Source of the DNA: Escherichia coli
GTDB lineage: Bacteria; Pseudomonadota; Gammaproteobacteria; Enterobacterales; Enterobacteriaceae
Assembly: GCF_003334335.1 (NCBI RefSeq)
Contig: NZ_QOWQ01000109.1
Strand: one strand, 5' to 3'
Length of the DNA: 1,340 bases
The notes beneath the pieces were generated by a model. That model was not told the origin of the DNA, did not search any database, and saw only the letters and a list, made by a program, of their open reading frames with translations. The translations under genes were made by a program, and so were the position numbers. Below, in pieces: positions 2-1,340 of the stretch (within the stretch, counting starts at the first letter, position 1; each line of letters starts with the position of its first letter).

Positions 2-24
2 CATAAGCGCTAACTTAAGGGTTG
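2..24. repeat. Terminal inverted repeat, transposase-distal end (IRR), 23 bp
   Basis: Bases 2-24 are an exact reverse complement of 1318-1340. The match breaks immediately inward (gaacca on this side versus gtggta on the other). Confidence 0.9.
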
Positions 25-172
25 AACCATCTGAAGAATGCGACGCCTCGGTGCCTCGTTAAGACGATGCCTCGCGTTCTTCAATTGCGTTTTGTAGGCT
101 GTCAGGGATACTGTCCCACGAATGGCCACCTGTAAGCTCCAGATGACCATTTTTGTTATTCTCCACAACGAG

Positions 173-1285
173 TTAGTTCTTCTTTTCGGATCCGGCACTT
201 CTGGGGGGGAAATCCAGCGATGGCTGGATTATGTCGTCAATTAAAAATGCGGCGAGTAGATTAGCAAATATCCACGCTTTCGCGAGTTCAGGTTCCTTTG
301 CACGCAAAGCATCCAGGTGCAGCAAACTTTTGAGCCGCTTAAAAGCCAGTTCAATTTGCCATCGCAGACGGTAACAATCAGCCACTTGCTCTGCTGAATA
401 TTCATCTTCCGGTAATGATGTTAGCAATAGCACATGGCCCGCTGCTTCCAGCGTTTCCGCCTGAACTACTCGTCCTTTTCGACGATTCTCGCTGAGCAGT
501 CGGGTTTTACTGATTAATGCTTTTTCGGGAGGAAGTGATACGGCAATGAGACGTGCCGGAAAGGGAGCTCCGGCTTTTTTATTACCTGAATTGCCTATCA
601 TTACAGTGGTTTCACCGTTCTTACCGCAATCCAGCCCGCGCAGAAAACCCATCATGTCAAAGCGCATTCCTTCTGCAGTTAACCAGCGCAATCCTCGCCA
701 GTGAACCCGGACGATATAATCAGCTTCTCCAAAAGCAAGTGAGCGGATACATTCGGGACGCGAACCGAATCCCCGGTCAGCAATGCGTATCTCGTCTGCC
801 GTTTGCGCAAATCGGTCCAGCCGTTCAGCGTCTCTGCTGTCGGTTAGCTCAAAATCAGTGAACTGACAGGTATGAGGATCATATCCCATATGTAGTCGCC
901 ATTCAGCGCTGCCGCCCCCGGGCGCACTGATTGCTGTTCCATCGACAAGACGCAATCTCTTTCCGCTTGTACAACCCGTAACTGCGGCGCGTACAGCAAG
1001 TGTTTGTGCGGCAAGTATGCCAAACCAGTCGGCGGCATTCCGCAGCCGCTTCAGGAGAGCCACGTCAGATAATGTTGCAACGTCATGGAGCTGAGCCCAT
1101 GCAGTGACTTCACGTAATGACATCCCCCCGGGGCCGTAAGCCAGCCCCAGACGTAGCAGAGTTGCAGCATCACGAATTTCGCGGCGGCGGGTTAGAGCCC
1201 CGGCATTACGTGCCGAAGTATCCAGTTCTTCGGGCTTACCAATATGGGCCAGAATTGCTGACCAGTTATCGTGAGAGTAATTCAT
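173..1285 (-). CDS. insL: IS186 transposase InsL, IS4-family DDE transposase, 370 aa
   Basis: Continuous minus-strand ORF with TAA stop at 173-175. The track starts it at a GTG (1289-1291); I prefer the in-frame ATG at 1283-1285, which gives MNYSHDNW... and 370 aa. IS4-family motifs are present: VDGT (D codon 941-943), ADRGF (D codon 776-778), and YRLRWQIELAFKRLK (E codon 350-352). The ORF fills the space between the two terminal repeats. Confidence 0.93.
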   Translation of the reverse strand: MNYSHDNWSAILAHIGKPEELDTSARNAGALTRRREIRDAATLLRLGLAYGPGGMSLREVTAWAQLHDVATLSDVALLKRLRNAADWFGILAAQTLAVRAAVTGCTSGKRLRLVDGTAISAPGGGSAEWRLHMGYDPHTCQFTDFELTDSRDAERLDRFAQTADEIRIADRGFGSRPECIRSLAFGEADYIVRVHWRGLRWLTAEGMRFDMMGFLRGLDCGKNGETTVMIGNSGNKKAGAPFPARLIAVSLPPEKALISKTRLLSENRRKGRVVQAETLEAAGHVLLLTSLPEDEYSAEQVADCYRLRWQIELAFKRLKSLLHLDALRAKEPELAKAWIFANLLAAFLIDDIIQPSLDFPPRSAGSEKKN

Positions 1286-1296
1286 CGGCACGTTAA

Positions 1297-1327
1297 ATCA
1301 TATCAGGCGTAATACCACAACCCTTAA
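1297..1327 (-). promoter_or_regulatory. Candidate transposase promoter: extended -10 (TGaTATGAT) with weak -35 overlapping the terminal repeat
   Basis: On the minus strand, TATGAT (1302..1297) is immediately preceded by TGa (1305..1303), an extended -10 pattern about 11 bp upstream of the ATG. The only -35-like hexamers (TTAAGG at 1327..1322, AAGGGT at 1325..1320) are poor and lie inside the terminal repeat. No clear Shine-Dalgarno precedes the ATG. Prediction by eye only. Confidence 0.3.
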
Positions 1328-1340
1328 GTTAGCGCTTATG
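1318..1340. repeat. Terminal inverted repeat, transposase-proximal end (IRL), 23 bp
   Basis: Reverse complement of 1318-1340 is CATAAGCGCTAACTTAAGGGTTG, identical to 2-24. It lies 32 bp upstream of the transposase ATG on the minus strand. Confidence 0.9.

Follow-up and report, generated by a model that had tools for sequence, protein, structure and literature searches.

The transposase of the insertion sequence (IS) IS630 from Roseiflexus requires transcripts that lack one C at a T5C5 run (Penno et al., 2015, as summarised by Atkins and colleagues, 2016; PMC5009743). The slippage is enabled by a hairpin in the nascent RNA, GCGGGCgcaaGCCCGC, adjacent to the run on its 5' side, and it tolerates one rU:dG pair (PMC5009743). 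The same source describes a +1 shift at CCC_UGA in the tsh genes of Listeria phages and in Escherichia coli pheL, where it reaches about 15% and the penultimate Phe matters (PMC5009743). The locus compared here with these systems is a stretch of 1340 bases from E. coli (contig NZ_QOWQ01000109.1), called the window below, which is 100% identical, in reverse orientation, to IS186A of E. coli K-12 MG1655. IS186 is a resident and active IS of E. coli K-12 and B, with insertions in the lon promoter and many insertions in evolution experiments. Its transposase gene, insL, has been annotated for decades as a single open reading frame (ORF) of 370 amino acids (aa), with some 170 bp of DNA labelled "non-coding" downstream of it. 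The comparisons below suggest, with a probability of about 0.8, that a C7 tract near the 3' end of insL is the core of a programmed recoding cassette leading from the 0 to the +1 frame, and that the approximately 170 bp after insL encode a conserved domain that would be reachable only by recoding.

The C7 Tract and Its Reading Frames

A preliminary description of the window had drawn attention to a run of seven G (203-209; C7 on the coding strand, with two Pro codons) and to an alternative frame open beside it, and both are as described. On the coding strand the region reads CTG GAT TTC CCC CCC AGA AGT GCC GGA TCC GAA AAG AAG AAC TAA (LDFPPRSAGSEKKN*), in which the two Pro codons are followed by nine codons and the stop (173-175), and the +1 frame is free of stops from 228 to 13, ending at TAG (10-12). 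It had also been proposed that a +1 shift or a one-base indel in the tract would exchange the end of the protein for a tail of roughly 65 residues, a size that proves about right. The proposal holds for a +1 shift or the loss of one C, which replaces the last 9 residues by 63 and gives a conceptual product of 424 aa, but not for an insertion, since the gain of one C leads into the other frame, with a tail of 15 residues and a product of 376 aa. The one-base deletion (C6) restores a full-length ORF of 424 aa that is collinear with the single-ORF transposases of relatives.

By itself the G7 run is not significant: dinucleotide shuffles of the window contained G7 or C7 runs with a mean of 0.12, and at least one such run in 15 of 200 shuffles. 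The IS186A tract is the sole G/C run of at least 7 in the 150 kb of MG1655 examined.

A Conserved C-Terminal Domain in the +1 Frame

Searches with the conceptual 424-aa fusion retrieved distant single-ORF transposases of 425-442 aa, aligned over 96-98% of the fusion. The BLASTP alignments with Paracoccus aminovorans P0183 (fusion residues 8-421, E 3e-95) and Pseudovibrio P0162 (residues 7-420) both continue through the tail, and the motifs LAFPP/LDFPP, SLWR, VAI.G and EPPRRR are common to the fusion and the single-ORF relatives. In the annotated frame, homology of InsL to its relatives stops at Pro361 (203-205), and the final 9 codons (176-202) are unconserved. In a full-length alignment of 37 proteins, natural or conceptual and sharing 27-88% identity with IS186, the tail residues W374 and R415 are invariant, and R375, R413 and P361 nearly so. 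Pro361 is conserved in at least 90%, and is invariant in a 25-protein alignment (A1).

The ratio of non-synonymous to synonymous substitution rates (dN/dS) was determined pairwise for seven elements ranging from IS186 to Agrobacterium. It is 0.14-0.37 for the tail in the +1 frame, against 0.8-3.4 when those bases are read in either of the remaining frames. The value is 0.05-0.24 for the last 57 codons of the body, and 0.18-0.19 for the tail when IS186 is paired with its two nearest diverged relatives. These values indicate that the tail is under purifying selection in the +1 frame only, and together with the alignments they identify it as a real coding sequence, a conserved C-terminal domain of this transposase family.

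The AlphaFold2 model of the fusion, based on the 37-protein alignment, has a predicted local distance difference test score (pLDDT) of 84.2 and a predicted template modeling score (pTM) of 0.81. The tail is predicted to form two helices, 373-389 and 394-408 (pLDDT about 80-88), which follow a flexible linker. In a fold search with this model the best PDB matches were four Tn5 transposase entries, with about 475 aligned columns. Tn5 transposase has a C-terminal dimerisation helix, and by analogy the tail of IS186 may play a role in synapsis or dimerisation.

The tail could in principle be made as a separate small protein by internal initiation and act in trans with the 370-aa protein, a very unlikely arrangement. 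The ORF listing does contain a GTG-initiated ORF of 62 aa at 10-198 (GTG at 198), and gene callers report ORFs of 44-46 aa in the tail region of relatives. However, the position of a start codon for the tail is not conserved: no ATG, GTG or TTG precedes the conserved Trp in 12 of 49 loci, an ATG candidate is found in only 20 and a Shine-Dalgarno-like sequence in only 7. Moreover, in the fused relatives the transposase itself contains the homologous region within one polypeptide chain, and internal initiation would leave the conserved run and the hairpin described below unexplained.

The +1 Arrangement Among Relatives

A scan of one genome per species yielded 79 loci, of which the 77 with a YRLRWQ motif were kept, and the frame of the tail was assigned by profile search in all three frames. 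The tail was assigned to the +1 frame in 47 loci, to frame 0 in 12 and to the +2 frame in 2; the remaining 16, several of them truncated contigs, gave no significant match. Complete conceptual fusions could be assembled for 43 elements, with bodies of 352-379 aa and tails of 58-102 aa. Loci with the tail in the +1 frame are spread over Alpha-, Beta- and Gammaproteobacteria, Acidobacteriota, Verrucomicrobiota, Bacillota, Armatimonadota, Planctomycetota and Bacteroidota, with one more in a metagenome-assembled genome labelled Lokiarchaeota.

Relatives that are 54-85% identical to IS186 (enterobacterial metagenome contigs, Pseudaminobacter, Labrenzia, Agrobacterium and others) have a 0-frame stop directly after the invariant Pro, and their tail, in the +1 frame, extends as far as the element's end. 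Examples of such split sites are CTG GAC TCT CCC CCC TGA GCC and GAC TCT TCC CCC TGA GGG. Escherichia albertii reads GAT TTT CCC CCC AGA where E. coli reads GAT TTC CCC CCC AGA, with identical frames. An origin of C7 as a 1-bp insertion into an ancestral fused gene was considered and rejected: the nearest relatives share the +1 arrangement, and T4C6 in E. albertii differs from T3C7 by a T-to-C substitution, so that the C7 of IS186 is not an insertion. The +1 arrangement is the ancestral state of the clade. Naturally fused derivatives of split relatives also occur (L007; L066, as compared with L052).

The preliminary description had regarded the tract as a mutational hotspot at best. In its strict form this would make the tail a relic or a chance ORF, the 370-aa protein the whole transposase, and changes in tract length the mark of variant or dead copies. 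Copies with G6 and G8 do exist and are annotated as frameshifted pseudogenes, and elements with G7 are mobile. Nevertheless, a relic is not expected to have a dN/dS of 0.14-0.37 in one frame only, nor to keep W374 and R415 invariant in tails that stay open for 58-102 codons in 43 elements of many phyla. The arrangement, moreover, is ancestral rather than an insertion in IS186, and part of the G6 signal looks like long-read error. With frame-specific selection, a homologous tail, and a shift site and covarying hairpin that recur across phyla, the hotspot explanation is improbable, if somewhat less so than internal initiation.

Some loci depart from this picture or are of separate interest. In a Rhizobium/Ensifer subgroup (L054, L060, L061, L067, L075, L079) the 0 frame ends in ...PEAPDSLPLAA* and a weak tail match lies in the +2 frame (E 0.002-0.08); these elements may have a different arrangement or may have lost the tail. 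The genome of the endosymbiont Candidatus Erwinia dacicola carries several decayed copies of an IS186 relative (L021, L022, L024, L076) with internal stops, a change of CCC to CTC at the site and one C7 copy that fuses the frames; they give the impression of elements dying out naturally. L095, which is complete and has the +1 arrangement (TTT TCC CCG TGG), lies on a 2.2-kb contig of a metagenome-assembled genome (MAG) labelled Candidatus Lokiarchaeota, and could reflect horizontal transfer or a binning artefact. Finally, a contig of Corallococcus aberystwythensis (L023; 490 bp, coverage 0.82) encodes a protein 99% identical to IS186, and is most likely E. coli DNA contaminating the myxobacterial assembly.

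The Shift Site

A logo built from 51 distinct site sequences has the consensus T-Y-T-Y-C-C / CCC / T-G-R / G, and the frame always changes at the same invariant Pro codon. This codon is CCC in 49 of the 51 sites and is followed by T in 46. Information content peaks between -6 and +7 around the Pro codon and has dropped to background at a distance of about 8 nt in both directions. As the T after the run becomes the synonymous third position of a Pro codon in the shifted reading, its conservation acts at the nucleotide level. The pyrimidine run upstream measures 8-11 nt in 46 of the 51 sites. The length of the homopolymer as such is not the conserved feature: the C run is of 5 at 23 sites, of 6 at 17, of 3-4 at 6, of 7 at 2 and of 8 at 1. 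The boundary between T and C moves and the pyrimidine run is kept (TTT TTT CCC, TTT TTC CCC, TTT TCC CCC, TTT CCC CCC, TTC CCC CCC). The +1 ORF typically opens 9-13 codons upstream of the site (in L070 only 4), and in many members the 0-frame stop directly follows CCC, which leaves the pyrimidine run as the only place for a change of frame that is open to all members.

The 0-frame codon after CCC is TGG at 17 sites, TGA at 16, TCT at 4, TGT at 3, TAC at 3 and AGA at 2, the others including GGA at 1. No Shine-Dalgarno-like stimulator (GGAGG-like) appears in the logo 5' of the site, and the positions in question are occupied by the arms of a hairpin (CCAGC/GCTGG and similar).

The Upstream RNA Hairpin

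In IS186 the hairpin has a dG of -10.8 kcal/mol and a z of -3.1 (Table 1). Of 49 loci, 34 have a stem of at least 5 bp on the 5' side of the run; shuffles give 16.0 +/- 3.1 (maximum 24), and control positions in the same genes 33%. Covariation was assessed in an ungapped alignment of 26 sequences, which includes 8 members without an obvious hairpin. Its 5-bp core is paired in 85.4% of cells, compared with 67.4 +/- 2.6% after shuffling (0 of 500 as high) and at most 44% in slid controls. The covariation score is 0.402 versus 0.136 in shuffles (again 0 of 500 as high), and compensatory changes are found in four of the five pairs. The amino acids encoded by the region vary (IQPSLD, VQHTLD, TRQLPD, IPDFRA, SQDFLA), and pairing is therefore not a by-product of protein conservation. 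Lineages fused for a long time (Pseudovibrio, Anaerolineae) have neither hairpin nor pyrimidine run, and recently fused derivatives (L007, L066, L039) keep the hairpin. An Rfam scan of the window gave no match, and a terminator scan of the window did not flag the hairpin at 211-230, because the run after it is rich in C and not in T.

The 3' end of the stem lies 6-9 nt ahead of the Pro codon and 8-11 nt ahead of the last C. Such a position would fit the RNA exit channel of RNA polymerase, and a ribosome decoding CCC would be expected to hold the same stretch unfolded. On account of this geometry transcriptional slippage is ranked above a ribosomal shift.

Table 1. Features of the IS186 window, with hairpins of five related loci for comparison.
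Feature	Position	Strand	Description
Terminal inverted repeat, tail side	2..24		23 nt, 100% complementary to 1318-1340; +1-frame stop inside
+1-frame tail	10..201	-	63 codons (201-13) and stop TAG (10-12, inside terminal repeat); EVPDPKRRTNSLWRITKMVIWSLQVAIRGTVSLTAYKTQLKNARHRLNEAPRRRILQMVQPLS
insL, annotated ORF	173..1285	-	370 aa, ATG 1283-1285, stop TAA 173-175
AGA, 0-frame codon after run	200..202	-	Post-shift reading GAA (201-199)
C7 run (G7 on +)	203..209	-	Last base of Phe359 and codons Pro360, Pro361 (TTC CCC CCC); proposed slip site
Pyrimidine run U3C7	203..212	-	Member of the family T(n)C(m) motif
RNA hairpin	211..230	-	AAUCCAGC-CAUC-GCUGGAUU, 8 bp, tetraloop, immediately 5' of UC7
Terminal inverted repeat, transposase-start side	1318..1340		Complement of 2-24
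Junction of conceptual 424-aa fusion			...SLDFPPEVPDPK
IS186 hairpin			5' arm AATCCAGC, loop catc, 3' arm GCTGGATT
L019 hairpin			5' arm TCCGGC, loop ccgc, 3' arm GCCGGA
L025 hairpin			5' arm CCCCG, loop caagt, 3' arm CGGGG
L034 hairpin			5' arm CCCGG, loop attt, 3' arm CCGGG
L047 hairpin			5' arm GCCAGG, loop attt, 3' arm CCTGGC
L068 hairpin			5' arm TCCGGACC, loop gac, 3' arm GGTCCGGA

Two Possible Routes to One Fusion Protein

From the comparison of sequences we infer that IS186 is recoded, by what mechanism, and which roles the long and the short product have. The 0 frame would encode the N-terminal part and the DDE catalytic body up to Pro361, and the +1 frame a C-terminal domain of 63 residues, with two helices, whose stop codon lies in the terminal repeat. 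A fraction of expression events would pass from the 0 to the +1 frame at the T3C7 run and yield the full-length transposase of 424 aa. The remaining events would produce the annotated 370-aa protein, that is, the body cut at Pro361 with 9 unconserved residues added.

The likeliest mechanism, at odds that are roughly even or slightly better, is hairpin-dependent transcriptional slippage, by analogy with the IS630 element of Roseiflexus. During transcription of the U/C run a GC-rich hairpin in the nascent RNA would form just behind the RNA-DNA hybrid of the polymerase, and an mRNA short of one C would then be translated normally into the fusion. Slippage motifs of the XmYn type measure about 9-10 nt, and IS186 has T3C7, with T6C3, T5C4, T4C5, T3C6 and T3C7 as the runs of the family; a stable stem-loop stands immediately 5' of the motif in IS186.

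The alternative route is a programmed +1 shift of the ribosome, a sub-case of recoding and a rival only to the transcriptional mechanism, which is tentatively placed second. A peptidyl-tRNAPro on CCC would meet a slow 0-frame codon in the A site (UGA in many relatives, the rare AGA in IS186) and slip onto CCU or CCA, with Pro-Pro or Ser-Pro at the nascent end before the slip. Pro-Pro stalls ribosomes, and AGA is a rare codon in E. coli. The composition of the site suits such a slip: the almost universal T after the P-site CCC (49 of 51 sites with CCC, 46 with T) creates a CCU readable by tRNAPro, in IS186 the following A creates CCA, and 16 of the 51 sites have the 0-frame stop TGA. CCC_UGA is itself a documented +1 site (PMC5009743), and IS186 reads UUC CCC CCC AGA, with Phe before the Pro codons. 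On the other hand, the 16 TGA, 2 AGA and 1 GGA in the A site stand against 17 TGG and 13 TGT, TGC, TCT, TCG or TAY, none of which is obviously slow. The logo lacks a Shine-Dalgarno-like stimulator 5' of the site, and the covarying hairpin, which ends 6-9 nt before the P-site codon and would be held single-stranded, is left unexplained. That IS186 and its relatives use genuine +1 ribosomal frameshifting, with tRNAPro on CCC before UGA or AGA, and are the first IS group known to do so, is a doubtful proposition, slightly more so than the ribosomal route as such. Slippage of the polymerase and a shift of the ribosome yield the same protein.

Several observations weigh against a recoding cassette of the kind proposed, or against its extension to the whole family. 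Many sites read TCTCCCCCC (TCTC6) and are not pure T(n)C(m) runs; at these, realignment would produce an rC:dA mismatch if the upstream hybrid were not melted. A stem of at least 5 bp is absent from 15 of 49 loci, including the Mesorhizobium/Rhizobium group (TGT/TGG after CCC) and about half of the distant TGG group, so that one mechanism may not serve all members. IS186 itself has AGA as the next codon and no 0-frame stop at the site, unlike most relatives. Related loci were ranked by tblastn against the fusion, which introduces a mild bias towards recognisable tails. Lastly, IS186 with C7 is mobile, with seven transposition events in a sample from the long-term evolution experiment (LTEE), and this mobility is equally compatible with the 370-aa protein being sufficient.

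Tract Length Among E. coli Copies

A 136-nt query around the tract matched at 8430 places, spread over 2167 of the 5426 complete genomes of E. coli. Copies with G6 and G8 were counted by exact match of synthetic queries of 70-72 nt in 2719 records, which hold about 8400 copies. A G6 copy is present in at least 146 of these records and a G8 copy in at least 42, and the great majority of the copies have G7. In an exact protein look-up the 424-aa product (G6) was encoded on 130 contigs, the 376-aa product (G8) on 382 and the 370-aa product on at least 1000. G6 and G8 copies are called "frameshifted" pseudogenes by PGAP.

The expectation that copies differ in tract length is thus borne out, in numbers that are confounded by sequencing error. 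One assembly of MG1655 reads G6 at IS186A where the reference reads G7. Contigs with G6 are bimodal in size, being either below 2 kb or above 1 Mb, which looks like the pattern expected from long-read homopolymer errors; those with G8 are mostly of 10-200 kb. No G7 or C7 run that could serve as an assembly-error control was found in an essential gene within the 150 kb of MG1655 examined, which leaves the G6 and G8 counts with no error baseline. Part of the variation is sequencing or assembly error, from which variants at the percent level are not separable.

These counts bear on a further alternative, a phase-variation switch at the DNA level, in which replication slippage from G7 to G6 would create constitutive producers of the full-length protein as the source of active enzyme. 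Fused G6 copies occur at several different chromosomal sites, and there are the naturally fused derivatives L007 and L066 (versus L052). Still, G7 prevails in the great majority of the approximately 8400 copies, the C run of relatives, usually of 5-6 and at its shortest of 3, is not long enough to slip often during replication, sequencing error confounds the G6 counts, and the hairpin would have no explanation. Such a switch is highly improbable, on a par with internal initiation. A long homopolymer conserved among relatives, the trait of a contingency locus, was not found at the 51 sites, where C runs are mostly of 5-6.

Two cases of unusual tract length were encountered. One E. coli chromosome (CP057075.1) carries at least four G8 copies (376 aa) at different loci (L114-L117), either mobilised, perhaps in trans, or the result of a systematic miscount of the run in the assembly. 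Two near-identical elements from MAGs labelled Asaia (L065) and Nitrosovibrio (L071) have C8 and C9, respectively, which moves the tail from the +1 to the +2 frame; this could be real tract variation or an assembly error.

IS186 as a Member of the IS4 Family

The terminal inverted repeats of IS186 (CATAAGCGCTAACTTAAGGGTTG) are perfect and start with 5'-CA, and the Y-(2)-R-(3)-E-(6)-K signature is present as YRLRWQIELAFKRLK at residues 305-319, both as in the IS4 family. Read from an upstream GTG, insL would have 372 aa. PF01609 is recorded for InsL homologues, and the NCBIfam model NF033592 scores InsL at 132.7 bits (cut-off 115). This model has 332 positions and does not reach beyond about residue 350 of InsL, which is why annotation pipelines take the 370-aa ORF to be complete and cannot detect that a C-terminal domain is missing. 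The same blind spot applies to hundreds of "complete" homologues of about 361-365 aa in the databases. Fragments of the tail frame at contig ends are labelled "IS4 family transposase, partial" by PGAP.

An unshifted transposase frame is also given as a trait of the family, and here IS186 differs, its conserved C-terminal domain lying in the +1 frame, as it does in 47 of the 61 related loci in which a tail was detected. The discrepancy speaks for a change in the description of the IS4 family and not for the removal of IS186 from it. IS186 remains an IS4-family element by its YREK signature, its NF033592 score, its CA-starting repeats and its Tn5-like fold.

Two further features were noted within the transposase gene. 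At 1124-1133, C6 is followed by G4 (CCCCCCGGGG), which on the coding strand encodes the GPGG of the conserved N-terminal motif LAYGPGGMSLR. At 555-580 on the plus strand, antisense to the transposase, a terminator-like hairpin GCCGGAAAGGGAGCTCCGGC is followed by TTTTTT; two such sites were found where 1.3 are expected, and the hairpin could block outside transcription entering the element or be due to chance.

Implications

If the recoding interpretation is right, the functional transposase of IS186 has 424 aa, and the reference annotation of InsL1-3 and the NCBIfam model describe a truncated product. Of the two hallmarks stated for the IS4 family, one, that there is no frameshift, would be lost. 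A cassette experimentally documented in one Roseiflexus element, or else a type of frameshift new to IS elements, would prove to be widespread, and the rate of shifting would be a candidate control point for IS186 transposition. Calls of "frameshifted" pseudogenes and G6 "variants" with fused ORFs would need to be read again. Should the shift be ribosomal, the output of transposase in E. coli would be coupled to the supply of tRNAArg(UCU), to the activity of RF2 or to the status of EF-P/TrmD, and the 370-aa InsL would be a truncated regulator or a by-product.

The searchable literature, which does not cover ISfinder, where a prior mention is possible, yielded no paper that connects recoding with IS186 or with the IS4 family. 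The GeneTack study kept only clusters with A-rich heptamers, a filter by which the IS186 site would be missed. The literature consulted on IS recoding contains no known case of a CCC_UGA-type +1 ribosomal shift in an IS element.

Comparison With Known Recoding Systems

With IS1, IS3, IS5 and IS630, IS186 would share the principle of two overlapping frames joined by recoding, the shorter 0-frame product being possibly regulatory. Those elements use a -1 shift at A-rich heptamers or slippage at A/T runs and join a DNA-binding to a catalytic domain, whereas in IS186 the catalytic domain is complete before the shift. The transposase of Tn5 (IS50), the structural reference for IS4 elements, is the best structural match to the 424-aa model over about its whole length, and the YREK signature is present. 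Yet it is encoded by a single ORF, and its regulator Inh, made from an alternative start, is missing the N-terminus, while the short form of IS186 would be truncated at the C-terminus.

As at the CCC_UGA sites of tsh and pheL and at CUU_UGA_C of prfB, the P-site codon of the IS186 family can re-pair in the +1 frame and at many sites is followed by a stop or a rare codon, and as in pheL there is a Phe before the Pro codons of IS186. In contrast to prfB, the family has no Shine-Dalgarno stimulator. It also differs from the CCC_UGA sites in that a third of its members have TGG and in having a conserved 5' hairpin that lies too close to fold on a ribosome.

The IS630 element of Roseiflexus differs from IS186 in several respects. 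IS186 belongs to the IS4 family (DDE_Tnp_1/YREK), and its slippage is proposed here from sequence comparison. In Roseiflexus the event joins OrfA, which binds DNA, to the catalytic OrfB; in IS186 it would fall near the 3' end of the gene, after the catalytic domain, and add a C-terminal domain of 63 aa. The T5C5 run of Roseiflexus has its counterpart in a run of variable composition, from C3 to C8 and often TCTC6. Nonetheless, the two have several elements in common, namely a T(n)C(m) run, a GC-rich tetraloop hairpin directly 5' of it, and the loss of one base leading into the +1 frame and to a full-length transposase.

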